Notes under the pieces: model-generated
What the model was told of the DNA's origin: nothing
The model's input: the letters and a program-made list of their open reading frames with translations, nothing else
Database searches by the model: none
Program-made: the position numbers and the translations under genes
From: Escherichia phage vB_Eco_slurp01
Length of the DNA: 64,000 nt
Strand: one strand, 5' to 3'
Sequence record: LT603033
Shown: one piece after another, positions 12,124 through 23,845 of the stretch
How the letters are laid out: each line of letters opens with the position of its first letter
How positions within the stretch are numbered: position 1 is the first letter of the stretch

Positions 12124-12303
12124 TATAGCTAGGGGAAGCTCCGTAGTGGAAGCATTATACAGGCTTTAACATATGTTGCATATGTTAAAATTCAGCCTGG
12201 ACAAATGCGATCACTAGGATTCTCCCCAGGCTAAACCCCGTAATCATAGGTAGTCATAAGTAATCATATATAAACATTTATATGAGCACCGTAGAATCAC
12301 AGA

Positions 12304-12512
12304 ATGATTATATATGATTCAGTACTGATTAGTATAGACAAGATTGCTCAAGAATGCACGGAAATGTGTGTGAATGATTCAGTACTGATTAGTATAGACA
12401 AGATTGCTCAAGAATGCACGGAAATGTGTGTGAATGATTCAGTACTGATTAGTATAGACAAGATTGCTCAAGAATGCACGGAAATGTGTGTGAATGATTC
12501 AGTACTGATATG
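12304..12512. repeat. Tandem direct repeat, 60-bp unit x ~3.5
   Basis: Unit GAATGATTCAGTACTGATTAGTATAGACAAGATTGCTCAAGAATGCACGGAAATGTGTGT repeated head-to-tail. Confidence 0.9.
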
Positions 12513-12656
12513 CCACTAAGTAGGCAGAGGAAGTCTGCCGTACTTTGTAGTTTCCAAGCTCCTTTTCCATTTTGCAAATTACATCAAATGTAATCAAAAG
12601 TAATCACGCAATGATTAGTACTGAATTATTACTTTCACCTTAATTACAATTACCCT

Positions 12657-12674
12657 TTTACCCTTCGGGGTAAA
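12657..12674 (+). other. Stable hairpin with UUCG-type tetraloop
   Basis: TTTACCC-TTCG-GGGTAAA perfect 7-bp stem. Confidence 0.5.
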
Positions 12675-12885
12675 ATTCAATTACCCCTTGAGGCTCCAGC
12701 AAAAAGTTGGTTAGTACTCCATCCTAAATCTCGATCCTAAAAATTTTGGAGTACCTATGAAATAAAAGTTGGATCTTCGAAAGTTGAAATTTACGTTGGG
12801 ACGTTTATGATTTGTGGGATATAATGATGTTTGTAGTCGGGTAGTTCTCAAGAATATCAGTACTGAATAATGAAAGAAAGCTATT

Positions 12886-12913
12886 GACATTATGATTCAG
12901 TACTGTATAATGT
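12886..12913 (+). promoter_or_regulatory. Sigma70-like promoter in non-coding hub
   Basis: TTGACA N16 TATAAT; no convincing ORF downstream. Confidence 0.5.
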
Positions 12914-13102
12914 TCTACATAGCTTCAAGGGGTGATGAGTTGCTGCGAACAATTCATTTACTCTACCTCCTGTCGTGAGACAGTACAGAAAAGATAGTTC
13001 CTCCTGTGGTGGTACATCTTTTTGAACCTCATATGAAAATCGTAATAACAGTACTGATATTAACAGAATGGTGTCAGTACTGATTTTAATCTAAAGCATT
13101 AT

Positions 13103-13122
13103 ACCACCAGCTTGTGCTGGTG
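13103..13122. other. Palindromic hairpin made of two inverted Chi octamers (CCACCAGC-TTGT-GCTGGTGG)
   Basis: Read directly; perfect 8-bp stem. Confidence 0.6.
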
Positions 13123-13238
13123 GATTCCCTCTAACAGTATTCAGTACTACATGATGGTCTTCATCCTCCTAGGGTAACATAGTGAGGGCTATGATGGCAG
13201 TACTGAATACTCCCTTTCAAAAGATAGATCTATGGTAT

Positions 13239-13440
13239 AGTACTGACGGATTTTGGGTGTAGTTACCCTGGATGGATTTTGGGCGTAGATATGTCTAGCC
13301 CTCCAGAAGTCTGGAAGTAAAGATGGCTATCCATCTAGACGGCTAAACGGCTAGATTTCTGGATGGCTGGATGGCTAGACGTTTGGACGGCTAAACGGCT
13401 AGATGGTTACACGTCTGGAAGTATAGACGGCTAAATCAAA
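13239..13440. repeat. Iteron-like cluster of short direct repeats
   Basis: GACGGCTAAACGGCTAGAT x2, GGATGGCT x3, TCTGGAAGTA x2, ATTTTGGGCGTA x2-3; AT-rich tract follows at 13441-13460. Confidence 0.6.
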
Positions 13441-14060
13441 ATTTTATTTTGTTTTTCCAATAGTTCCCCTACCGCGTGGGGATAGTTTCCCCGCAGTATC
13501 TGGAGTTAGATTTTTCTGAATCTGGAATCATTATCTTATAAACTGGGGGCAATGTCAACGACCTGGACGGATATTTTTAAAAATTTTTTCAGTACTGAAT
13601 TTTGGGCGTAACTATGCACCCGGTGGGCTTGAGTCTTTCTCGACTTGATGGAACTATTATACAGTACTGGAAAAATAAAGCAATACCCTGGATGAAAAAA
13701 GTTTTAATTAATTTGCTTGCCATCCTGGGCCGGACTATGGTACTATAATTCAGTACTGAGAAAGTGCGTTAACCTGCTAGGGTGCGGGAGTGTATCCTTT
13801 TTTTATATCTTGAATTTTGGACGGATCTTCCCACCCCCTGGGGTATCCGCTTTCTCGCGTCTATGTAGTAATTATACGCTTTTTCAGGATCAAGTCAATA
13901 CCTAAAAACAAAATAATTGAAAATAATTTAACGCGTTTAAACGGCCCGTAAAGCCCTGGAATGATTGGAATGGTGCAAATGTATAGCTTGGGTGTATTAA
14001 TGCGTTAGAATGCGTCTGAGGCCGTTTTACGGGGTGTAGTAGTGATTTGGTGGATTGATT

Positions 14061-14215
14061 CAGTACTGAATAATAGTACTCCTATATAGAAAGATAGTTC
14101 CCCTGGATGGTTGCAGTACTGAATAATAGTACTCCTATATAGAAAGATAGTTCCCCTGGATGGTTGCAGTACTGAATAATAGTTCCCCTATATAGAAAGA
14201 AAACTATTTTAAAAG
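14061..14215. repeat. Tandem direct repeat, 53-bp unit x ~3, immediately upstream of first early promoter
   Basis: CAGTACTGAATAATAGTACTCCTATATAGAAAGATAGTTCCCCTGGATGGTTG repeated. Confidence 0.85.
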
Positions 14216-14231
14216 TATTTGTAGAAAGTAC

Positions 14232-14259
14232 TTGCAAACTATGTTTAACGGCGTATAAT
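14232..14259 (+). promoter_or_regulatory. Early promoter, sigma70-like
   Basis: TTGCAA N16 TATAAT. Confidence 0.7.
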
Positions 14260-14272
14260 GTTTTACATCGAG

Positions 14273-14291
14273 AGCGGGAACACTTCCCGCT
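14273..14291 (+). other. Promoter-proximal hairpin (AGCGGGAA-CAC-TTCCCGCT)
   Basis: 8-bp stem immediately downstream of predicted start site; member of the recurrent hairpin class. Confidence 0.6.
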
Positions 14292-14314
14292 ACATATTAC
14301 GAGAGATTAAAACG

Positions 14315-14677
14315 ATGGCGACTCAAATCACTAAAATTATTGCTAACCTGGTTAACTTTCGCGACGAGATGAAAGATCTTCCGGCAGAAACGGTAAAAAT
14401 TCACATTGCAGCTTATCGGGAACTTATTGCAATGTTACCTCTTAAGCGTGAACAATACGCCGCTACCGTGATGCTTGATGCGATGATCCATAAGATGATC
14501 GCCAGTGATTTAACGATGGTTTATCAGTATATGGGCGAAAATTTCGCGGTGTATAGTAAACCAGTACCAGGAATGGAAAGTACAGAAGTATTACACGGTT
14601 TAAATTTAAAACAAGATGCATGGGATAATATGCCTCGTTTCCTGGTATGGGCTGACAGTGGCAAAATTTACGAATAA
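14315..14677 (+). CDS. Hypothetical early protein (120 aa)
   Basis: ORF 14258..14677 trimmed: upstream ATG lies inside the -10 element; GAGAGA RBS before MATQITK. Confidence 0.7.
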   Translation: MATQITKIIANLVNFRDEMKDLPAETVKIHIAAYRELIAMLPLKREQYAATVMLDAMIHKMIASDLTMVYQYMGENFAVYSKPVPGMESTEVLHGLNLKQDAWDNMPRFLVWADSGKIYE

Positions 14678-14691
14678 GTTTAATAAAGTAC

Positions 14692-14719
14692 TTGCAAACT
14701 ATGTTTAATGGCGTATAAT
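14692..14719 (+). promoter_or_regulatory. Early promoter
   Basis: TTGCAA N16 TATAAT; hairpin GTGGGGAA-TAG-TTCCCCAC at 14732-14750. Confidence 0.7.
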
Positions 14720-14770
14720 GTTTTACATCAGGTGGGGAATAGTTCCCCACTATATAAGAGGATTAAAAAA

Positions 14771-15010
14771 ATGGCTAAATCAAAAATGTTCTTAGGTCAC
14801 AAAAACAAAACTCATTGGAATGTAAGCCTTTGGATTAATAACGATGAATCATTATACCGGTTGGCCCTGGACTTTATTGCCGCCAATACTAATCGCAATG
14901 ATGCGGCCCGTCATATGATGTTATTTTTAGAACAGACTGGACAAGATAAAACACCGGACGGATTCAAATATAGCACTACTGCGATCCGTGCGGCAATGGT
15001 TGGAATGTAA
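14771..15010 (+). CDS. Hypothetical early protein (79 aa)
   Basis: ORF 14708..15010 trimmed to ATG after AAGAGGA RBS. Confidence 0.7.
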   Translation: MAKSKMFLGHKNKTHWNVSLWINNDESLYRLALDFIAANTNRNDAARHMMLFLEQTGQDKTPDGFKYSTTAIRAAMVGM

Positions 15011-15032
15011 TAGAATAGAATTTATTTAAAGT

Positions 15033-15061
15033 ACTATTGCACGGGGATAGTACTTTATAAT
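15033..15061 (+). promoter_or_regulatory. Degenerate early promoter (TATAAT present, -35 region shortened)
   Basis: Aligns with the promoter at 26483-26511 but has a deletion in the spacer. Confidence 0.4.
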
Positions 15062-15098
15062 AGTGTTTTATTCATACACCAACGATAAGGGCAACAGC

Positions 15099-15365
15099 AT
15101 GAATATTAAGTATTTTGCGACGCGTGAACAAGCTCGGATCGCCGCACGCCAGGACGGGGCAACGTTTAAAGATATGGGCGTACAATCGGAACGTGGTAAA
15201 CGTTGGGCCATTGTAAAGCGTAGTACCGCCAGATCATTACAGTACTGGTTAGCGGCCTTAAAAAGACCCGATAGTGTATCGCGACGAGTGGTAGAAATAA
15301 AGCTCGACCGAAAGGGCAACCGCGTGACCGTGTACCGTACTAAAAAGATTGCAGTACTTGAATAA
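15099..15365 (+). CDS. Hypothetical early protein (88 aa); paralog of 26556..26951
   Basis: Trimmed ORF; shared KYFATREQARIAAR...FKDMG...RKGNRVTVY. Confidence 0.7.
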   Translation: MNIKYFATREQARIAARQDGATFKDMGVQSERGKRWAIVKRSTARSLQYWLAALKRPDSVSRRVVEIKLDRKGNRVTVYRTKKIAVLE

Positions 15366-15373
15366 AAAGTACT

Positions 15374-15400
15374 TGCAAACTATGTTTAAAGGCGTATAAT
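15374..15400 (+). promoter_or_regulatory. Early promoter
   Basis: TTGCAA N15 TATAAT; hairpin GCGGGAA-CTC-TTCCCGC at 15415-15431. Confidence 0.7.
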
Positions 15401-15452
15401 GTTTTACATCGAGAGCGGGAACTCTTCCCGCCTATAACCTGGAGTAATAAAA

Positions 15453-15683
15453 ATGACTAATATGTATATGACTGAAGTTAAAACCGTAAAAGATACTACC
15501 ACGAATAAAACTACTTACTTACAGCGGATCTGTGGTGTATGGCAACGTATCAGCAAATCAAAGTACTTTAAATTAACATCATATGCAAACCGTTCGGATT
15601 CATTCAGTACTGAAATAAAAGGTAATAAAGTACACCAATACGGCACTTATTATTATTATAGCCTGGACGCGATTGCAGTATAA
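15453..15683 (+). CDS. Hypothetical early protein (76 aa)
   Basis: ORF track; GGAG RBS. Confidence 0.65.
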   Translation: MTNMYMTEVKTVKDTTTNKTTYLQRICGVWQRISKSKYFKLTSYANRSDSFSTEIKGNKVHQYGTYYYYSLDAIAV

Positions 15684-15713
15684 GCAGTTTACAAATCTTT
15701 ACAATTGCCGGTA

Positions 15714-15742
15714 TTGACTTATTTTGTCAGTACTGGCATAAT
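15714..15742 (+). promoter_or_regulatory. Promoter driving a non-coding stretch
   Basis: TTGACT N17 CATAAT; no ORF over 25 aa follows. Confidence 0.5.
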
Positions 15743-15744
15743 GT

Positions 15745-15925
15745 ATTCATTGGCAGATAAGCCGTAGCCCATAGGGTGCGGGAGTGTATCTATAGAAAAA
15801 GTAGTTTATTACAGTTACAATTGTGCACCCGGTGGGTTAGCTGTTGTCATGGGGTATATTATGCCAGTACTGGATAGTGCTGTCAATACCTTTTTACTAT
15901 TCAGTACTGAAAACTATTTTTAAAA
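15745..15925 (+). ncRNA. Candidate small non-coding RNA
   Basis: Promoter-driven, no ORF; contains inverted copies of the CCCAYNGGGTGC motif that could pair. Confidence 0.3.
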
Positions 15926-15930
15926 AGTAC

Positions 15931-15958
15931 TTGCAAACTATGTTTAAAGGCGTATAAT
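15931..15958 (+). promoter_or_regulatory. Early promoter (upstream member of a tandem pair)
   Basis: TTGCAA N16 TATAAT. Confidence 0.7.
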
Positions 15959-15965
15959 GTTTTAC

Positions 15966-16040
15966 ATCAGGACGGGGAACGAAATAAGTAACTCCCCATT
16001 AAGTAGCCCAGGAGTAAGGCACACGAAAAACTCCCCTGAT
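15966..16040 (+). other. Conserved ~75-nt structured leader element (copy 1 of 3)
   Basis: ATCAGG...CCTGAT closing helix plus internal GGGGA/TCCCC stem-loop; near-identical copy at 25361-25433, related copy at 18275-18385. Confidence 0.5.
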
Positions 16041-16047
16041 AAAATAG

Positions 16048-16076
16048 TTTGAAAATTGTTTTTAAAAGCGTATAAT
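16048..16076 (+). promoter_or_regulatory. Second promoter of tandem pair
   Basis: TTTGAA N17 TATAAT. Confidence 0.5.
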
Positions 16077-16108
16077 ACTTACATCAACTACTGAATGAGG
16101 GTTACAAA

Positions 16109-16720
16109 ATGAAAACTATCACTACTACTACTTTCGTTATGGATTTTTCTGAATTGAACGCAGAACAAAAAACGTCAGCTATCGAACTGGTTCGGGAACG
16201 TGAAAAAAACTCAAACGACAATTATTTTTCTGAAAGTGAAATTGAATACTATAAAGAAACAGTACTACCGGAATATGGCATTAATGACGCTGAAATACAA
16301 TTCAGTGGTTTTTGGTCCCAGGGTGACGGTGCATCAATCAGTACTGACCACGTTGACGCAGTGAAGTTTTTACGCAAGGTAAGAGCATTAACTAAGTATC
16401 GCTCAATCCGTCACCTGCTGAATGAAGATGATTTGGCGATGAGTGTAAAGCGTTCTCACTCTCACTACTCGCATGAGAACACTGTAAGCGGGTACATTGA
16501 ATCGGCTTACACTGATTTAACCGCAAAACAAGAAACGTTAGTTAATGAGCTTGAGGAACTACTCACTGAAACTATTCGTGAATTGTCACGCAAGTTGTAC
16601 CGTGATTTAGAGAATGCATATGAGGATCAATTCACTACTGAAAACATCGTAGCACTGATTGAGGGTAACGAGTATCAATTCAATGTTATTGATGGCGTAG
16701 TAGAATCAATCGAATATTAA
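16109..16720 (+). CDS. Hypothetical acidic protein (203 aa)
   Basis: ORF track; GAGGG RBS. Confidence 0.75.
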   Translation: MKTITTTTFVMDFSELNAEQKTSAIELVREREKNSNDNYFSESEIEYYKETVLPEYGINDAEIQFSGFWSQGDGASISTDHVDAVKFLRKVRALTKYRSIRHLLNEDDLAMSVKRSHSHYSHENTVSGYIESAYTDLTAKQETLVNELEELLTETIRELSRKLYRDLENAYEDQFTTENIVALIEGNEYQFNVIDGVVESIEY

Positions 16721-16732
16721 TTCAAAAAGTAC

Positions 16733-16760
16733 TGGACACTAAGCAATAAAGGCGTATAAT
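16733..16760 (+). promoter_or_regulatory. Early promoter
   Basis: TGGACA N16 TATAAT; hairpin AGCGGGAA-TAG-TTCCCGCT at 16774-16792. Confidence 0.6.
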
Positions 16761-16812
16761 ACTTTATATCGAGAGCGGGAATAGTTCCCGCTACTAATGA
16801 GGAATACTACAA

Positions 16813-16977
16813 ATGAATACTTTTACCTTCGCTCAATTGAACGCCCTGGATGTATTGTCTGATGCTTTGCGGGATGCAACTGAAAGCGGTTTATTTGACA
16901 ATGTTGACATTCACCCTGATGTAATTAATAATTTTTGTGATGCTATCGCAGAAGTACTGGAAGATCTAAAAAAATAA
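16813..16977 (+). CDS. Hypothetical small protein (54 aa, below ORF-track cutoff)
   Basis: Own translation MNTFTFAQLNALDVLSDALRDATESGLFDN...; GAGGAA RBS; promoter upstream. Confidence 0.5.
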   Translation: MNTFTFAQLNALDVLSDALRDATESGLFDNVDIHPDVINNFCDAIAEVLEDLKK

Positions 16978-16987
16978 TAGAAAGTAC

Positions 16988-17015
16988 TTGCAATTAGTTT
17001 TTAGTACTGTATAAT
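16988..17015 (+). promoter_or_regulatory. Early promoter
   Basis: TTGCAA N16 TATAAT; hairpin 17028-17047. Confidence 0.7.
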
Positions 17016-17065
17016 AGTTTACATAGAGGGGAGAAATGGTTCTCCCTGGTAATGAGGAAAATAAA

Positions 17066-17287
17066 ATGGCTAATATCACTACTCTTTCTCAACTGGAAGC
17101 ACTGGTTAAATCTATGCGGGAACATGCAGACAATATCGGCGTAAAAGATCCAGCCGTTTGCTTCTGCGACGAAATGAATGATGATACACTGGTAATAGCA
17201 GAAGTACAAGATATTTCTAACTATTCATCGCGTTACACTGGCGGCGTAGCAAATAAAGGTGACTTCTGTTTATACCTTACCAAATAA
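17066..17287 (+). CDS. Hypothetical early protein (73 aa)
   Basis: ORF 17036..17287 trimmed to MANITTLS after GAGGAAAA RBS. Confidence 0.65.
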   Translation: MANITTLSQLEALVKSMREHADNIGVKDPAVCFCDEMNDDTLVIAEVQDISNYSSRYTGGVANKGDFCLYLTK

Positions 17288-17292
17288 CAACG

Positions 17293-17322
17293 CGGGGAGA
17301 TAATAACTCCCCGTTACTTTTT
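17293..17322 (+). terminator. Intrinsic terminator
   Basis: CGGGGAG-ATAATAA-CTCCCCG then TTACTTTTTC. Confidence 0.7.
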
Positions 17323-17455
17323 CAGTACTGAATCATTTAATAGACGGATCTCGGCACCCTGTGGGTTAGTGACTGTATCGTCTTTATGTAGTAATTATGC
17401 CAGTACTGGATGCACTTGTCAACAACTATTTTTCAAATACTTTTTATTAAAATAC

Positions 17456-17483
17456 TTGCTAATAGTTTTTAAACGCGTATAAT
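17456..17483 (+). promoter_or_regulatory. Early promoter
   Basis: TTGCTA N16 TATAAT; hairpin GGGGAG-CGG-TTCCCC at 17494-17508. Confidence 0.6.
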
Positions 17484-17529
17484 GTTTTGCATAGGGGAGC
17501 GGTTCCCCTGGTAACTAAGGAATAAGAAA

Positions 17530-17766
17530 ATGCTTGAACAAATCAAATCAACGTCTGCTAATGTAACGGGAACGGTATCACACTTTATTGGTGATGAATC
17601 GCGGGGCGTTCCCTATTGTGCTGTACATGTAAACACTGAGGGTAACTACTGGTTTACGGTTTACGGATCATATTCATTTGGACGGCCAGGGCATCAAAAA
17701 ATTCTGGATAAAGTACAACCAACGGGTAAAAATATCACTGCCGAAATGTTTTATAAAAAATCATAA
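17530..17766 (+). CDS. Hypothetical early protein (78 aa)
   Basis: ORF track; TAAGGAATAAG RBS. Confidence 0.7.
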   Translation: MLEQIKSTSANVTGTVSHFIGDESRGVPYCAVHVNTEGNYWFTVYGSYSFGRPGHQKILDKVQPTGKNITAEMFYKKS

Positions 17767-17771
17767 AGTAC

Positions 17772-17799
17772 TTGATAATAGTTTTTAGTACTGTACAAT
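17772..17799 (+). promoter_or_regulatory. Early promoter
   Basis: TTGATA N16 TACAAT; hairpin GGGGGAG-CGG-TTCCCCC at 17814-17830. Confidence 0.6.
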
Positions 17800-17850
17800 A
17801 TTTTACATCGCACGGGGGAGCGGTTCCCCCTGGTAACTAAGGATAATCAA

Positions 17851-18150
17851 ATGAAAATTGCAATCATCGCCCTGGCTTTATCTGTTTCCTCTTTCGCTGT
17901 TAACGCGTCGTTAGATGTACCTAGTGAAAAATTCATTCAGTGTACTGTTGCGATGACAGATGAAAGTACTGGCGAGATTGTTTTAAAGGATTTAGAGATC
18001 CAGTCAGAAGCATTTAAAAGCGGCCCGTTCCATGAAGAAGACGAAAAAGGTAGCACGACAATTTATTACGATGTAAGTACTAAGCGTGGATCGGTCACGG
18101 TTATGGATACTGAGAAAGTAACGCACACCGGAGTAATTAACTGTTTATAA
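17851..18150 (+). CDS. Putative secreted/periplasmic small protein (99 aa)
   Basis: N-terminus MKIAIIALALSVSSFAVNA|S has signal-peptide character (basic n-region, hydrophobic core, AxA site). Confidence 0.7.
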   Translation: MKIAIIALALSVSSFAVNASLDVPSEKFIQCTVAMTDESTGEIVLKDLEIQSEAFKSGPFHEEDEKGSTTIYYDVSTKRGSVTVMDTEKVTHTGVINCL

Positions 18151-18167
18151 TATAGTACTGAATCACT

Positions 18168-18196
18168 AGCCCACCTTAAACAGTGGGCTTTTTTGT
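18168..18196 (+). terminator. Intrinsic terminator
   Basis: AGCCCAC-CTTAAACA-GTGGGCT + TTTTTT; identical copy at 18894. Confidence 0.8.
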
Positions 18197-18238
18197 TTTG
18201 TAGTACTGCATACTTTAAAAATAGTTTTAAAAAAGTAG

Positions 18239-18266
18239 TTGACATTACCACAAAAAGGCGTAGAAT
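18239..18266 (+). promoter_or_regulatory. Early promoter with long structured leader
   Basis: TTGACA N16 TAGAAT; ~110-nt leader 18275-18385 related to 15966 element. Confidence 0.65.
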
Positions 18267-18389
18267 GTATTACATCAAGACGGGGAGCACTAAGTAGACC
18301 GCCAGTAAGTCGAACGAAAAACTGGACACGTCGATAAAACTTTGATACACTAATAAACGTAAACTAAACTTTAATTGAGGATTTATAAA

Positions 18390-18872
18390 ATGGCTAATGT
18401 AAAATCATTCCTGAAAGCACTGATTTCAAACGATACTGTTATTGCTGCTGAATTGCTGGCTGAACTGGATAACGATACAATGAAAGCGGTACGCAACAAT
18501 TTTAACATTGCGTACAGTGAAGCTAAAGAACTGCAAGCCAAAAAGGTAGCAGAACTGGAAGAACAGAAAAAAGCCCGTGAAGCAGAACTACAAGCAACAA
18601 TTGAAAGTATTCAGGCGGCAGTGTCTGGATTGGATCTGGAAGTGGTTGTAGAAATGGCACATAAAGCCCTGGCGGTTAAGTACGGTGAAGATAAGCCGGA
18701 ATCTAAACCTAAAAAATGGATTCAAGAACGTGTTACTGTAGTACTTGATAACGGTGAAGAACATTTGATTCCTGTACGCGGTAACTGCATTGCGGTAGTA
18801 CTGGACGCTATCAAAGAAAGCGGTATGACTCGCGAGGAATGGATCGAAGCTCATCGCAAAGTTGAAGCATAA
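18390..18872 (+). CDS. Hypothetical protein with predicted coiled-coil N-terminal half (160 aa)
   Basis: ORF 18375..18872 trimmed to MANVKSF after GAGGA RBS. Confidence 0.7.
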   Translation: MANVKSFLKALISNDTVIAAELLAELDNDTMKAVRNNFNIAYSEAKELQAKKVAELEEQKKAREAELQATIESIQAAVSGLDLEVVVEMAHKALAVKYGEDKPESKPKKWIQERVTVVLDNGEEHLIPVRGNCIAVVLDAIKESGMTREEWIEAHRKVEA

Positions 18873-18893
18873 CAATTAAAGTACTGAATCAAT

Positions 18894-18921
18894 AGCCCAC
18901 CTTAAACAGTGGGCTTTTTTG
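18894..18921 (+). terminator. Intrinsic terminator (duplicate of 18168)
   Basis: Same hairpin + T-run. Confidence 0.8.
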
Positions 18922-19074
18922 TGTCTATAGTATTCCAGTCCACTAGCACCGCCTAGAATCGATTCTAACGCATTAAACTGATTATCTGATACATCGCCCT
19001 AGCTGGTGGCGTTAAGGTCGTTAGAAAGCGATTGAGAGTGTTTAAAGTATTTTGCAAAAAGTAATAAAAAGTAC

Positions 19075-19102
19075 TTGCATGATTAAGAGATTAGCGTATA
19101 AT
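19075..19102 (+). promoter_or_regulatory. Early promoter
   Basis: TTGCAT N16 TATAAT; hairpin ~19115-19132. Confidence 0.65.
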
Positions 19103-19156
19103 GTTTTACATCGAAAGGGGAAACGGTTCTCCTTCCAAATCAAAGGAATCAAAACA

Positions 19157-19384
19157 ATGGCTATTATCATTACTCGCGTATCTGGTACTACTGGCAATTC
19201 TTCTACTGTTGCAGTCATTACTAACAAGGCAGGTGCGGAATTGCAAAATGCAATGAATACCTGGGCCGTTAATGAGTTCGGTCAGTGGGCAAGTGTAGCA
19301 TACATTGAAACCTATCAAGTGCCGACCATTAGTTTAACGGATCTTGGTGTGGAACGTATCCTTTGCTTGGATGAATTAAATTAA
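19157..19384 (+). CDS. Hypothetical early protein (75 aa)
   Basis: ORF 19052..19384 trimmed to MAIIITRV after AAAGGAAT RBS. Confidence 0.65.
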   Translation: MAIIITRVSGTTGNSSTVAVITNKAGAELQNAMNTWAVNEFGQWASVAYIETYQVPTISLTDLGVERILCLDELN

Positions 19385-19392
19385 AAAAGTAC

Positions 19393-19420
19393 TTGCAAAG
19401 TAAATCGAATAAAGTATAAT
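19393..19420 (+). promoter_or_regulatory. Early promoter
   Basis: TTGCAA N16 TATAAT; hairpin GGGGAGAA-ATGA-TTCTCCCC at 19433-19452. Confidence 0.7.
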
Positions 19421-19469
19421 ACATTACATCAAGGGGAGAAATGATTCTCCCCACTACAAGGAAACTAAT

Positions 19470-19613
19470 ATGAAAACTTGTCAATGTGGTAAAAAATCTA
19501 TTACTGGTTTAAAGCGGGGCGTTGCTCTTTGCCAGTACCATTATAATTTACAAGTATGGGGTAAAGAATGGGCCGACCAGGTGGAAGCAATTAAGAAAGC
19601 AAAAAGTAAGTAA
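19470..19613 (+). CDS. Small Cys/His-containing protein (47 aa), possible zinc ribbon
   Basis: Own translation MKTCQCGKKSITGLKRGVALCQYHYNLQVWGKEW...; below ORF-track cutoff. Confidence 0.45.
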   Translation: MKTCQCGKKSITGLKRGVALCQYHYNLQVWGKEWADQVEAIKKAKSK

Positions 19614-19632
19614 AAATATTATCACAGTACTA

Positions 19633-19661
19633 TTGACATAGTTTGATAGTACTGGCATAAT
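19633..19661 (+). promoter_or_regulatory. Early promoter (class without downstream hairpin)
   Basis: TTGACA N17 CATAAT. Confidence 0.7.
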
Positions 19662-19702
19662 AGATTTTATCAAGACAACATATTAATTTAAGGAATACTA
19701 AA

Positions 19703-20026
19703 ATGGCTAAAACTATCATTAACACCGTTTCCCTGGCTGCAATCCGTGCAATCAATGTTGACGGTAAACGTTGGACTGATTCATATGGCAATACTTATCA
19801 TTCTTGTCATGTAAGCGTCGAACTGGATAACGGTTTGAATGTTCTGGCGGTTGAATCATTTACTTATGGCTATGAAGATGCATATCAACAAACGGCGTTA
19901 GATCTATTAAAGGAATCAGTAGACGGGCTTAATACTGATGAAACCTCCCTTACTCGTTTGTGCAATGATCTTAATATCCCGTTGCATTGTACTGTACAGA
20001 ATGTTAAACGCAAAAAAGATCTTTAA
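19703..20026 (+). CDS. Hypothetical early protein (107 aa); paralog of 26137..26460
   Basis: ORF track; shared RWTDSxGNTYHSC...FTYGY...VKRKKD. Confidence 0.75.
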   Translation: MAKTIINTVSLAAIRAINVDGKRWTDSYGNTYHSCHVSVELDNGLNVLAVESFTYGYEDAYQQTALDLLKESVDGLNTDETSLTRLCNDLNIPLHCTVQNVKRKKDL

Positions 20027-20106
20027 TTAGCTTTACTTTATGCAGATACTTTGATATAGTGTCTGCATAGGGGAAAGAAATTAAATTAACTTAAGAGGAT
20101 CGTATA

Positions 20107-20376
20107 ATGAAAAATATCAGTACTTTAATCGATGCAGGTACACATGTTCGGCGGTCTATGGTTGCAACCAGTACTACAAAACAAGTAGCAAGCGGTTATC
20201 TTGTATTTGTGCACGATGGTAAACTCCTGGAACGTTCAATCAATTTTGATGTTAAAAACAATTGCCGTTTTATTATCTTTAAGCGTGAACAATATAAAAT
20301 TGATTTGCCAGCGAAGCCCATTAGCGGGGCGTACAACGTGCAATCATTGTTTGAGCGTCAACCATACACCTATTGA
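20107..20376 (+). CDS. Hypothetical protein (89 aa)
   Basis: ORF track; AAGAGGA RBS. Confidence 0.65.
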   Translation: MKNISTLIDAGTHVRRSMVATSTTKQVASGYLVFVHDGKLLERSINFDVKNNCRFIIFKREQYKIDLPAKPISGAYNVQSLFERQPYTY

Positions 20377-20427
20377 TCAAATCATCGTTAGTGGTCGATT
20401 TAGGCCGCTTATATTGGGGATTATACC

Positions 20428-20700
20428 ATGAACGTTAATCAAGTACTAAATGAAGTTGAAAGCATCATTAAACCAATGAAACGTATTGATGCAATGCTAA
20501 CACCGGAAGAATGCCGCCTTTATGAGCGTTACAGCGTCGAACAAGTCCAGGCGATGGCTATGGCTACCCCTGCCGTTAAACAGCCTGAGAATGCGTTACA
20601 GGACGTTACAGGGGATTATATCATTAATCCAGTACTAGGGAAGATTACACCAATCACCGAAGAAGAAAAAGACTACTTAAGCCAGTACTTAAAAGGTTAA
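20428..20700 (+). CDS. Hypothetical protein (90 aa)
   Basis: ORF track. Confidence 0.6.
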   Translation: MNVNQVLNEVESIIKPMKRIDAMLTPEECRLYERYSVEQVQAMAMATPAVKQPENALQDVTGDYIINPVLGKITPITEEEKDYLSQYLKG

Positions 20701-20705
20701 TTAAT

Positions 20706-20915
20706 ATGCTTACTGTACAGGATAAGATCGACATCTTAAAGGTTAATATGTATGTGATTGATGCAGATCCTGAAAAAGTATTTGCATACGATGATTCTAA
20801 TCGTAGTCCTTTTTATTGTAGTCATGTAGTTGGATACGTGCCGTTAGCGTATGTTATCGAAAGAGTGGTTGATTCAGCATACAAACATTTTTTAGAAAAT
20901 AATACTTGCAATTAG
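20706..20915 (+). CDS. Hypothetical protein (69 aa)
   Basis: ORF track; stop lies inside the next promoter. Confidence 0.55.
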   Translation: MLTVQDKIDILKVNMYVIDADPEKVFAYDDSNRSPFYCSHVVGYVPLAYVIERVVDSAYKHFLENNTCN

Positions 20916-20933
20916 TTTTTAGTACTGTATAAT
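20906..20933 (+). promoter_or_regulatory. Early promoter
   Basis: TTGCAA N16 TATAAT; hairpin ~20946-20967. Confidence 0.7.
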
Positions 20934-20984
20934 AGTTTACATGAAGTGGAGAAATAGTTCTCCCCACTAATTAAGGAATATGAA

Positions 20985-21589: not shown

Positions 21590-21595
21590 AAAAAG

Positions 21596-21720
21596 TGGTT
21601 GACTTCGGTCAGCCATTTTGCTATTATATATTCATTGAGAGATAGCTCACTAGCCCACAGGGTGCAGGAGTGTATCTATTGTATAATGTTTGAGTACTGA
21701 AAACTATTTTTAAAAAAGTA
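21596..21720 (+). repeat. Repeated intergenic module (hairpin overlapping TTGACT-N17-TATTAT promoter + CCCACAGGGTGC motif), copy 1
   Basis: Other copies at 25196-25320, 28463-28600, 30726-30870. Confidence 0.7.
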
Positions 21721-21800: not shown

Positions 21801-22142
21801 ATGACTATCTCAATTGCTCAATCTAACTTTGAAAATGAAATCATCGCCCAGGTACTGCGTTTAAATGATGGTCGGGCCGAAATTAATTACGGTTTCAATT
21901 CAGGCGGTTGTGAAAACTATCAGTACTTTGTAACGGCTGATGGCGGTGTCCTGGGCATCAATACAGTTATTGTAAACATCCAAAAAATTAATTTCAATGA
22001 TCCAGACGATAGCCAGTTTTACATCACTGGCGTAGACGTGAACTATGAGGATGACTCACTAACTGATGATTACACTGGTGAGCGGTTAGAAAGTGCTTAT
22101 GGTGAAGATGATTATCAGTCAGTACCGGAAGATTTCGAATAA
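21801..22142 (+). CDS. Hypothetical early protein (113 aa)
   Basis: ORF 21738..22142 trimmed to MTISIAQ after AAGGAAAC RBS. Confidence 0.7.
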   Translation: MTISIAQSNFENEIIAQVLRLNDGRAEINYGFNSGGCENYQYFVTADGGVLGINTVIVNIQKINFNDPDDSQFYITGVDVNYEDDSLTDDYTGERLESAYGEDDYQSVPEDFE

Positions 22143-22155
22143 TATAAAAAATAGT

Positions 22156-22183
22156 TTGACAATAGATTATAGTACTGTATAAT
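22156..22183 (+). promoter_or_regulatory. Early promoter
   Basis: TTGACA N16 TATAAT; hairpin GGGGAGAA-TAG-TTCTCCCC at 22196-22214. Confidence 0.7.
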
Positions 22184-22234
22184 AGTTTACATCAAGGGGA
22201 GAATAGTTCTCCCCACTAACAGAGAAAAAACAAA

Positions 22235-22447
22235 ATGGCTAATATCCGCACTGTACTGAAAAATGCAAAACAAGTTTTATTTTCTGATCATGATACTTTC
22301 AACAAGGATATTACTGGCGTTCGGAATATCAAAGATGTAAAAAGTGTTATGGGTATCTATTGCAATATGAAACGTGTTGGAACGTTCGGCGACAAAGTAC
22401 TATACCAGGCAGGGGATTACAATTTTACACTGACTATCATTAACTAA
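22235..22447 (+). CDS. Hypothetical early protein (70 aa)
   Basis: ORF track. Confidence 0.7.
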   Translation: MANIRTVLKNAKQVLFSDHDTFNKDITGVRNIKDVKSVMGIYCNMKRVGTFGDKVLYQAGDYNFTLTIIN

Positions 22448-23260: not shown

Positions 23261-23289
23261 TTGACAATATCCTCCAGTACTGGCATAAT
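23261..23289 (+). promoter_or_regulatory. Promoter followed by ~290-bp non-coding leader
   Basis: TTGACA N17 CATAAT. Confidence 0.65.
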
Positions 23290-23587
23290 ACTTACATCAA
23301 GACGAGAACGTCACTAACCCATAGGGTGCACAAATGTAACTGTATAATATTGATCAAAAAATGATCTGATCAATACTTGATCAATTTGCGTAAAGTAGTA
23401 TAATTCTATGCAGTTGGTTAGACGAAAGGTTATGATTAGTAGTGCAAGTGTATAAAAATTTTCATGGTGTATCGTTTCGCACATATGGGGATGAATATGT
23501 GGTATCATGTGGATTGGAAAAAGTAAGAACAAGTAATATTATTGTCGCATTACAGTACTATAGTATTTTTATAATGAGGTTAAAATA
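23290..23587 (+). ncRNA. Candidate non-coding RNA or long leader with clustered TGATCA/GATC
   Basis: No plus-strand ORF; TTGATCAA x3 + GATCTGATCAA within 23340-23395. Confidence 0.3.
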
Positions 23588-23845
23588 ATGGCTGTAGGAT
23601 TCGCGAAAGATGGGGCCGAACAAGACGAGATTAACGCAGTGATTCAGGCCGCCGTTAACCACGCTAGAAAGCAAATTAACGCACAAATAGAATCACTGAT
23701 ACATTGCCTCGACTGCGGCGATATAATCCCTGAGAAACGACGCCAGGCCGTTAAGGGGTGTAAGTACTGCATAACTTGCCAGGAGGATCATGATAGTACT
23801 TTTAAACGTCCCCCGCGTAATTGTTGGCATAGATCTATGAGATAA
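23588..23845 (+). CDS. TraR/DksA-family C4 zinc-finger protein (85 aa)
   Basis: CLDCGDIIPEKRRQAVKGCKYC fits C-x2-C-x3-I-P-x2-R...C-x2-C signature. Confidence 0.6.
   Translation: MAVGFAKDGAEQDEINAVIQAAVNHARKQINAQIESLIHCLDCGDIIPEKRRQAVKGCKYCITCQEDHDSTFKRPPRNCWHRSMR

Follow-up and report, generated by a model that had tools for sequence, protein, structure and literature searches.

What is made from a promoter that has no gene behind it? The question is raised by positions 15714-15925 of a 64,000-nucleotide (nt) stretch of DNA from Escherichia phage vB_Eco_slurp01 (sequence record LT603033), the whole of which we analyzed and refer to as the window. An original prediction, made from the letters of this stretch, saw there a promoter followed by a candidate small RNA containing inverted copies of a recurrent motif. 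The reading that we favor, tentatively and at rather less than even confidence, is that the locus is a convergent pair from a multi-copy family of promoter-coupled, structured non-coding RNA elements, whose RNAs would be early, abundant and bind a protein. The predicted plus-strand promoter was recovered by a scan: TTGACT-N17-CATAAT at 15714-15742 has 10 of 12 consensus matches and an extended -10 TG, with a predicted start at A15749. A lone match of this sigma-70 type is not significant in such AT-rich DNA (38 observed between 12 and 20 kb versus 28.1 ± 5.8 expected); across all five aligned Asteriusvirus sequences a single position of this promoter varies, and its flanks are variable. The accompanying claim that no gene-sized open reading frame (ORF) lies on the plus strand between this promoter and the next one at 15931-15958 holds for ATG starts, which open a single ORF of 24 amino acids (aa; 15849-15923), but not for GTG and TTG starts, which open ORFs of 33 and 37 aa. 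These ORFs are not conserved, as EJP2 and WPEC3 have a 7-nt insertion and CMSTMSU has deletions, and a small protein was rejected on account of these indels. The records of 121Q, fEgEco12, WPEC3 and the SD-series draw "hypothetical protein" coding sequences (CDSs) across this non-coding locus. These annotations look spurious, because the 62-aa CDS of 121Q (gene 270, 2552-2737 of its locus) meets a stop after 8 codons in the window phage.

If the locus makes an RNA, is it the single extended hairpin that was proposed? The motif CCCATAGGGTGC does lie at 15768-15779 on the plus strand and its near-inverse at 15825-15836 (CCCACCGGGTGC on the minus strand), 57 nt from start to start, and a plus-strand transcript of 15749-15900 does fold into an extended hairpin (-52.7 kcal/mol, z = -3.5, equaled by none of 200 shuffles). 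What had been overlooked is that the minus strand has a promoter of its own: 15886-15858 (TTGACA-N17-CATAAT, 11 of 12 consensus matches, again with the extended -10 TG) is conserved in the Asteriusvirus alignment, stronger than the plus-strand promoter and aimed back at it. As the two promoters face each other, the locus is a convergent pair formed by two copies of one element. Hence, the notion of one hairpin RNA carrying two motif copies has to be abandoned: the 12-mers are the cores of two opposed element copies, each with its own promoter, and the long hairpin needs one RNA that reads through the partner copy. The counterparts of the plus-strand copy in the phages RaK2, GAP32, CBB and Munch are solos with no inverted partner, which implies that a 49-nt module, not the extended hairpin, is the conserved feature, and that pairing at this particular position is specific to Asteriusvirus. 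A small non-coding RNA nevertheless remains the right kind of explanation, because the locus is non-coding, its sigma-70 promoter is conserved and a conserved RNA structure starts at the predicted start; it is the single promoter driving a single two-motif RNA that did not survive.

We built a covariance model, R1, from 12 copies of equal length. The plus-strand copy (15749-15796; 43 bits, E = 4e-9) folds locally into a hairpin 1, in which 15751-15754 pairs with 15761-15764 around the loop AGAUAA, and a hairpin 2 formed by G15767-CCC, the loop AUA and GGG-U15777; an alternative hairpin 3 pairs GGGUGC(G) at 15774-15780 with (U)GUAUCU at 15785-15791. After a gap of 11 nt comes the minus-strand copy (15808-15845; 26 bits, E = 2e-4), with its core CCCACCGGGUGC at 15836-15825 and a predicted start at about 15850. 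Its hairpin 1 is degenerate in the window phage due to a 7-nt deletion and is intact in EJP2 and WPEC3 (GAC-GAGAAA-GUC), while its hairpin 2 loop differs from that of its partner (ACC versus AUA). Both promoters and the core are essentially invariant among the Asteriusvirus relatives. In 121Q, a patch of about 30 nt that covers hairpin 1, the linker and the hairpin 2 loop has been swapped, giving hairpin 1 the stem AUUG/CAAU between identical flanks, and this looks like an exchange with another family copy. The pair is bounded by two further hairpins. The first, an imperfect inverted repeat GCCGGTATTGAC / GTCAGTACTGGC with a 7-nt loop (15707-15737, plus strand), is terminator-like in its position after the upstream gene 15453-15683 and encloses the -35 box of the plus-strand promoter; it is also the 12-pair stem of a spurious IS102 alignment and appears in the fold of the minus-strand RNA. 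The second, GGUAU...AUACC (15853-15895, plus strand), overlies the minus-strand promoter region and is followed by U5 at 15891-15895; the corresponding T-run is present in all five relatives with a length of roughly T5 to T9, and the folding model suggests that this is the likely 3' end of a plus-strand RNA of about 145 nt.

The setting of the locus was revealed by comparison with other genomes. The region is 92-99% identical to the Asteriusvirus jumbo coliphages PBECO4, 121Q, G17 and phAPEC6, and its match in vB_Ec-M-J (3452-3692) falls within the annotated direct terminal repeat of that phage (1-21525). Because position 1 of vB_Ec-M-J corresponds to window position 12519, the repeat should span roughly 12.5-34 kb of the window, with the locus about 3.2 kb from the left physical end. 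A 20,993-bp repeat has been confirmed with restriction digests in the close relative fEgEco12 (PMC13070987). The repeat in the window is dense in small plus-strand ORFs without known function that lie behind sigma-70-like promoters.

Is the pair an isolated oddity of this repeat? The motif CCCANNGGGTGC, allowing at most one mismatch, occurs 10 times in the window versus 0.63 expected, a number reached by none of 100 shuffles, and each of the ten occurrences follows a TTGAC-N17 promoter, at 25-35 nt from its -10 box. A regular-expression scan of the early regions of RaK2 (Alcyoneusvirus), GAP32 and CBB (Mimasvirus) and Salmonella phage Munch recovered 9-11 more copies per region, all behind the same type of promoter. 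In BLAST searches with the locus, the plus-strand element, with or without its promoter, was the only part that matched RaK2, GAP32, CBB and Munch, at 83-86% identity. R1 identified 50 copies in the window and these four loci, and 81 copies at E <= 0.01 once loci from IMG/VR were added to give the window and 12 related loci; the ten in the window are confined to 13.6-30.8 kb, all within the repeat. Apart from two contigs of 109 kb and 5.8 kb, all matches of a strict DNA pattern in IMG/VR were on Rak2-like contigs of 345-378 kb, and in the whole contigs of RaK2, GAP32 and CBB the matches of this pattern all fell inside the early-region loci already collected. For the terminal repeat of Pseudomonas phage PA5oct, a distant relative, R1 gave no credible match (E = 0.94), and blastn of the plus-strand copy (15745-15800) against 5,426 complete genomes and plasmids of E. 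coli gave no match at E <= 10, a search that is blind to matches as short as a 12-nt seed. Members of the family occur in phages that infect Escherichia, Salmonella, Klebsiella, Cronobacter and Pectobacterium and probably also in the Yersinia Eneladusvirus, and the family appears confined to the direct terminal repeat of about 21 kb that is the early region of the Rak2-like jumbo phages.

The 81 copies allow the anatomy of the module to be defined. Recognizable -35 and -10 boxes precede 75 of them; the -35 box is TTGACA or TTGACT in 68 of these promoters, the spacer is 17 nt in 58 and an extended -10 TG is present in 48. Model position 1 is an A within a CAT context; in 55 of the 75 promoters its distance from the end of the -10 box is exactly 6 nt, and the module thus begins at the predicted start site. 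Two unpaired bases are followed by hairpin 1, whose stem of 3-5 base pairs (bp) changes in sequence almost copy by copy while retaining complementarity (e.g. UGGC/GCCG, UGAG/CUCA, GACG/CGUC, AGCA/UGCU, GCCA/UGGC and GGAG/CUCC); about 16 distinct stems were already visible prior to model fitting. In the 81-copy alignment 124 cells of this stem have changed on both sides versus 45.6 ± 5.1 in shuffles, and the covariation score is 0.432 versus at most 0.062 when the 3' partner is slid. The loop is purine-rich, 6-7 nt long and ends in AA (AGAUAA, GAGAAA, GCGAAA, AGAACAA), and the hairpin is replaced by unpaired, A-rich sequence (GAAACAA) in a minority of copies. A linker of 3-5 nt leads to the core, R-CCC, a loop of 3-4 nt, GGG-U and GC, which forms hairpin 2. 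Its loop is ACA in 41 copies, AUA in 18 and varied in the remainder, its CCC/GGG pairs are invariant but for two compensatory CCU/AGG cases, and its R-U pair is A-U or G.U. RNAalifold predicts hairpins 1 and 2 alike. Instead of pairing with CCC, the invariant GGGUGC may pair with a downstream GYRYC..Y (typically GUAUCU, CCGUCU or CUGUCU) to form hairpin 3, which is 91.5% paired versus 24-63% when slid. The 3' strand of this hairpin varies only from Y to Y or from R to R, so preserving G.U/G-C and U-A/U.G pairs, and hairpin 3 is more stable than the competing hairpin 2 in 57 of 80 copies (means of -4.1 versus -3.1 kcal/mol). As many of its pairs are G.U, this fold exists solely on the strand that would be read from the adjacent promoter. 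In folding models the CCC/GGGUGC/GYRYCY core can adopt a two-state fold.

Several further structures were considered for the module and set aside. A pseudoknot that joins AGAUA in the loop of hairpin 1 to the 3' UAUCU fits the AGAUAA subtype only and, by eye, does not fit GAGAAA, GCGAAA or AGAACAA. A closing helix between the 5' end and a 3' CUAU is inconsistent across copies. Hairpin 3 is not a general terminator, since six or more T occur in the next 10 nt in just 15 of 80 copies (mean 4.1); exceptions with a clear U-tract exist, for example 13779-13798 followed by T7. The same 3' sequence might also be read as a message, with GGAG/GGGUG resembling a Shine-Dalgarno sequence ahead of RUG-UAU-CUA-stop, such that the module would encode a small peptide or a bar-like minigene. 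Such a three-codon ORF (M/V/L-Y-L-stop) is present in 12 copies, including GUG UAU CUA UAG at 15784-15795. However, ATG, GTG or TTG occupies that position in only 41 of 79 copies, on which ground we rejected an M-Y-L-stop minigene; moreover, ORF lengths range from 1 to 45 codons, the frames across hairpin 1 and the core vary by copy, and the larger ORFs of the locus are broken in relatives as described above. We therefore attach almost no credence to a translated module.

In five annotated loci with 50 copies we distinguished 24 plus-strand solos, 10 minus-strand solos and 8 convergent pairs. At the plus-strand solos the promoter is embedded in the terminator hairpin of the preceding gene, with the T-tract supplying the -10 box, and an ordinary early promoter with its gene follows 20-60 nt on, with no terminator between. 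In the window, 12-pair stems of terminator-like hairpins at 21592-21619, 25200-25227 and 30736-30763 hold the -35 boxes of the promoters 21599-21627, 25207-25235 and 30743-30771, which precede the plus-strand solos 21634-21682, 25242-25285 and 30778-30821, respectively; terminator and promoter overlap likewise in other genera. Further plus-strand solos found by R1 are 23298-23348 (promoter 23261-23289), upstream of a TraR/DksA-like gene, and 28510-28558 (62.8 bits). The minus-strand solos lie just downstream of a plus-strand gene and, in at least 6 of 10 cases, run into its two-way terminator 17-47 nt past the module; by their sequence such solos would yield RNAs of about 100 nt. In the window they are represented by 13599-13647 (49.8 bits) and by 17337-17385, whose promoter lies at 17422-17394 and whose predicted RNA, about 100 nt long, would run into the two-way terminator 17313-17293. 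In addition to the pair at our locus, the window holds a minus-strand copy at 13814-13862 (23.3 bits) that is faced by a variant unit at 13717-13803, the eleventh copy in the window, which R1 missed. This variant has the promoter TTGCCA-18-TACTAT followed by CCU-GCUA-GGGUGC and by a hairpin 3 that forms a terminator-like site (13779-13798) with U7, and its predicted RNA is about 50 nt.

The plus-strand solos raise the main rival to a free RNA, namely that the module is a promoter-proximal signal in the nascent RNA, or in the non-template DNA, that modifies its own RNA polymerase, either alone in the manner of put or aided by a factor as in nut/N, Q and ops/RfaH. Polymerases that start at these promoters would then withstand pausing, intrinsic terminators and Rho across terminator-rich early operons. 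A close known counterpart is the put RNA of phage HK022 (putL and putR), a factor-independent antiterminator that measures about 73 nt, has two long stem-loops, the first with a base triplex, and occurs twice, once at the head of each early operon; by contacting the beta' zinc-binding domain it keeps the polymerase in cis from pausing and terminating (PMC9378689). Like put, the module is an untranslated hairpin RNA of a phage early region, placed at or just after a sigma-70 start site and present more than once per genome; its beginning at +1 is the arrangement of putL (PMC9378689). The plus-strand solos stand exactly at block boundaries, with their promoter in the preceding terminator and none before the next gene, and a TraR/DksA-type RNA polymerase-binding protein is encoded in the repeat (23588-23842). 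The elemental pause pattern is G-10/Y-1/G+1, with which the module seems to agree: it offers an invariant GG, a near-invariant U 10-11 nt further on and, after this U, a G in roughly half to two thirds of the copies. However, a third of the copies are in facing pairs, where a modified polymerase would merely collide with the partner, and the minus-strand solos aim into two-way terminators with no gene beyond. Unlike put, the module is just 49 nt long with 4-bp helices, has a two-state core rather than two long stem-loops and a triplex (PMC9378689), occurs in at least ten copies per repeat, many of which face each other or terminators, and displays no sequence similarity to put that we could see. 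Nor does any boxA-like or ops-like sequence adjoin a copy: the boxA sequence GCTCTTTA with at most one mismatch has 39 sites versus 52 expected, the RfaH ops sequence GGCGGTAGNNTG with at most two mismatches has 20 sites versus 14 expected with none on a copy, and a boxA like CGCUCUUUA beside a hairpin, as in a lambda-type nut site, was not found at the copies. Compared with lambda boxB, which has a short stem and a GNRA-like purine pentaloop, hairpin 1 has stems of 3-5 bp and purine-rich loops of 6-7 nt, and thus differs in loop size. We consider this explanation unlikely, yet it ranks first among the rivals, as it explains the plus-strand solos very well and the pairs and terminator-facing minus-strand copies poorly.

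The fusion of terminator and promoter recalls a second known arrangement, the PeSLs, which are composite terminator/early-promoter cassettes of T4-like phages (PMC2839356, PMC4122927). The copies might correspondingly be cassettes that act at the DNA level, as boundaries or insulators and as short homologies for the shuffling of small early genes, with the transcribed part conserved merely as a stabilizing 5' hairpin and promoter-escape sequence. Both are repeated intergenic cassettes of the hyper-variable early regions of large myoviruses, here amidst small ORFs without known function, both fuse a terminator to a sigma-70 promoter with which it overlaps (PMC4122927), and both carry signs of exchange between copies, as in the patch of 121Q. 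Other early promoters of the repeat likewise begin with a 5' hairpin. On the other hand, selection in the module is on pairing and not on identity, as is evident from the ~16 stems of hairpin 1 and the R/Y-constrained hairpin 3, and homologous exchange would need more than its approximately 12 invariant nt. PeSLs end in a Shine-Dalgarno sequence and a gene start, whereas the module is a conserved, structured non-coding unit that is followed by neither a Shine-Dalgarno sequence nor a start codon, and often by no gene at all; the gene after a plus-strand module has its own promoter, or none follows. Further, a role as DNA cassette gives no function to the invariant CCC-N3-GGGUGC. It is accordingly a doubtful explanation, and a little less probable to us than an effect on the polymerase.

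Neighboring copies among the 81 form 13 convergent pairs, no divergent pair and one same-strand case within 300 nt, and in 6 of the 13 pairs, from three genera and one IMG/VR contig, exactly 11 nt separate the model ends. This recurrence, together with the stable folds of read-through RNAs from pairs (z = -4.1 to -6.3), marks the convergent pair as a conserved design, which argues against a role as mRNA leader only. In temperate phages, face-to-face promoters such as 186 pR/pL and P22 Pant/Psar stand about 60-120 bp apart and give overlapping complementary RNAs and transcriptional interference. Those are unique switches of protein genes, whereas the partners described here are one repeated non-coding element with several pairs per genome. 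The conserved geometry of the pairs might mean that complementarity itself is the function, with the pairs yielding double-stranded RNA or long hairpins to be cut by RNase III, and with the minus-strand copies acting as antisense to early read-through transcripts and setting boundaries or shutoff. The read-through RNAs of the CBB and GAP32 pairs do form perfect, GC-rich stems of 15-19 bp (z = -4.3 to -6.3), and the minus-strand copies are restricted to the left ~14 kb of the repeat, opposite to the direction of the genes. Nevertheless, most copies are solos in sense orientation, the patterns of hairpin 1 and of the G.U-bearing hairpin 3 are intramolecular, strand-specific and superfluous for antisense action, and the hairpin 2 loops of the two partners at our locus do not match. 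Hence, we give complementary RNA little weight.

The units could finally be viewed as transcription-primed origins, in which a promoter, a G-cluster on the non-template strand and an AT-rich stretch promote priming from an R-loop, with pairs starting synthesis both ways. At T4 oriF and oriG an R-loop primes DNA synthesis, and the phages considered here presumably have T4-like replication genes. The module does present GGGUGCGGAG(G) followed by AT-rich sequence, and the left-most pair lies in a terminal non-coding region of about 1.7 kb with 8-bp iteron-like repeats (13305-13432) and other repeats. However, ten or more origins within 20 kb of a 350-kb genome would be odd, and neither the covariation of hairpin 1 nor the invariant CCC has a role in an R-loop, making this explanation quite improbable.

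We also compared the element with other known types of sequence. ARAGORN found no tRNA or tmRNA gene, or remnant thereof, in the whole window. No known RNA family of Rfam 15 matched the window at gathering thresholds, and at E <= 10 over 13400-17600, which holds five copies, there were only chance-level matches and none on an element. The EcoKI site AAC(N6)GTGC was rejected, since UAACCCACAGGGUGC has a spacing of N7 and AAC, judged by eye, is missing in half of the copies. We dropped a mimic of CRISPR repeats, as we know of no resemblance to the enterobacterial I-E and I-F repeats. A type III antitoxin RNA of the ToxI kind does not fit copies that are dispersed rather than in a tandem array and that have no match in Rfam. 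A search of the window for a complementary target of the motif found none. Descriptions of the element were encountered neither in the literature on CBB, RaK2, phAPEC6, Sharanji and fEgEco12 nor by full-text search with 11-mers of its sequence.

Two further comparisons bear on the RNA itself. The minus-strand solos resemble ordinary genes for trans-acting small RNAs in having a promoter, a conserved 5' module, an AU-rich spacer and a terminator with a U tail in about 100 nt. The family differs from ordinary small RNAs in being multi-copy, in lacking a terminator in half of the copies and in having a core that resembles a free-looped hairpin more than a linear seed. The combination of own promoter and intrinsic terminator is found in at least 6 of the 10 minus-strand solos, in 17337-17385 and in the plus-strand copy of our pair (hairpin and U5), and is lacking in 22 of the 24 plus-strand solos. 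In PA5oct, the non-coding RNAs ncRNA001 and ncRNA002 of the 39-kb terminal repeat are highly transcribed by RNA-seq, at 2-5% of phage reads; they are single-copy and 236 and 451 nt long (8263-8498 and 21951-22401, respectively; PMC7318152). They share with the element a non-coding nature, the niche of a long terminal repeat and a jumbo phage that relies on host RNA polymerase; in contrast, there is no match in sequence or structure, and kinship was rejected as PA5oct has neither an R1 match nor shared repeats. By analogy, these RNAs speak for an early non-coding RNA. The element is not to be filed as a member of HK022 put, the PeSLs, ordinary small RNA genes or the PA5oct RNAs. It represents a new family of RNA motifs whose multi-copy, convergent organization is unusual, and its kind, the phage early non-coding or leader RNA, is already known.

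How would such an RNA act? Under the reading that we favor, host RNA polymerase would fire the module promoters immediately on entry of the DNA, and about ten copies per repeat in two repeats per genome would generate an abundant pool of short RNAs with a common 5' module. We take the 5' 49-nt module as the functional unit, because it is the sole constant among terminated RNAs, pairs and mRNAs; the sequence downstream would matter less, minus-strand solos ending at two-way terminators and plus-strand solos entering the next gene. Each of the paired RNAs would be stopped or processed within its partner, such that at our locus the plus-strand RNA would run from 15749 to the U5 near 15895 and contain the long hairpin, and the minus-strand RNA would start from about 15850. 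The module would work as RNA, most likely by offering a host or phage protein a binding site or a decoy, and the alternative pairing of CCC/GGGUGC/GYRYCY would be the part that is read or switched by this partner. A protein-binding or switching hairpin is favored over a linear antisense seed, as the stem sequence is invariant, the loop is free and a 3' partner competes. That the RNA binds a protein, and titrates it or is switched by it, is accordingly a mechanism we propose with some reserve, as possible rather than probable.

Several observations weigh against this proposal. Among the 50 classified copies, 24 are plus-strand solos without a terminator before the next gene, and therefore a free RNA fits them no better than a leader on its own transcript. 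The helices of hairpins 2 and 3 are short and of low stability (about -3 and -4 kcal/mol), and hairpin 2 is almost devoid of covariation (2 compensatory cases in 79), as follows from its invariant sequence. The counts of pairs were taken from alignments fitted to the model, which are biased toward structure. The transcription of all copies is deduced from their promoters alone. Finally, Pfam scans of 50 ORFs of the repeat for a partner protein gave no RNA-binding family; they detected a TraR/DksA zinc finger, a ParE-like domain, three domains of unknown function and weak matches including one to a kinase domain.

Some of these proteins and other features of the repeat deserve mention in their own right. 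The TraR/DksA-like gene (23588-23842, plus strand), about 240 nt downstream of the copy at 23298, encodes an 85-aa protein with a DksA/TraR C4 zinc finger (E = 1.6e-10, above the Pfam cut-off), which by this match is likely to be an RNA polymerase secondary-channel factor. The ParE-like toxin domain (E = 6e-11) is encoded at 27014-27265 on the plus strand. The product of 27872-28453 (plus strand) has a weak protein-kinase-like match (E = 2e-3, below the cut-off), and the Munch repeat is annotated with a putative protein kinase at a comparable distance from its left end. Just outside the repeat, 258-7443 on the minus strand holds six consecutive ORFs of 369-433 aa, which may be paralogues; GAP32_001, the minus-strand gene just left of the early region of GAP32, is annotated as similar to RCC1. 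A second family of early promoter cassettes has at least 13 members in 14219-20942 (e.g. 14232-14259, 15373-15400 and 15931-15958). These consist of AAAAGTACTTGCAA, 16 nt, TATAAT, a start in a CAT context, a GC-rich 5' hairpin of the GGGGAA-N3-TTCCCC type, a Shine-Dalgarno sequence and a small ORF, and are thus PeSL-like. The palindrome CAGTACTG occurs 55 times in the whole window versus 0.69 expected and is densest at 12300-17400. It forms part of the promoter architecture, as AAAAGTACTTGCAA at the -35 box and as CCAGTACTGGCATAAT in the spacer and -10 box, and is found again 5-8 nt past most family copies; a regulator of early promoters may use it as its operator. Two identical terminator hairpins, AGCCCACCTTAAACAGTGGGCT with a T-run, are found 726 bp apart at 18168-18189 and 18894-18915, each preceded by AGTACTGAATCA, as a repeated intergenic cassette.

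The left end of the repeat, which is non-coding for about 1.7 kb, and its outer flank hold repeats of three kinds. Approximately 3.4 tandem 60-bp units (12303-12509) end at the boundary at 12519, an 8-bp-periodic run of units like GGATGGCT occupies 13305-13432, and three 53-bp repeats lie at 14051-14209; these sequences could serve in packaging, end recognition or as an origin. Chi sites, GCTGGTGG, number 11 in the window versus 0.47 expected, with 9 on the plus strand between 13116 and 30858, all within the repeat. There is an inverted pair of them at 13104 (minus) and 13116 (plus), and two sites lie just past family copies (25288 and 30851). The one-way bias of these sites suggests linear genome ends that are protected from RecBCD.

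The early regions of jumbo phages consist almost entirely of small ORFs that are unannotated, and their non-coding content has been overlooked. The DNA that is expressed first in these phages carries a conserved, repeated and structured RNA element that is tied base-for-base to strong host-type promoters, and annotators may use R1 to purge spurious "hypothetical protein" calls from these intergenic regions. Provided that the predicted RNA is indeed made, few early products of the infection would be more abundant, and the 49-nt module is a defined handle that could lead to a host factor which these phages neutralize or recruit. We consider it a rather long shot that the family constitutes a new phage RNA device, delivered in about 20 copies per genome in the first minutes, whose core captures a conserved enterobacterial protein, be it RNA polymerase itself, for which the module would be a minimal put-like processivity signal that needs no protein, or a titrated host factor of defense or RNA decay. 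If this were true, the terminal repeat would in part be an RNA-based organ of host takeover.

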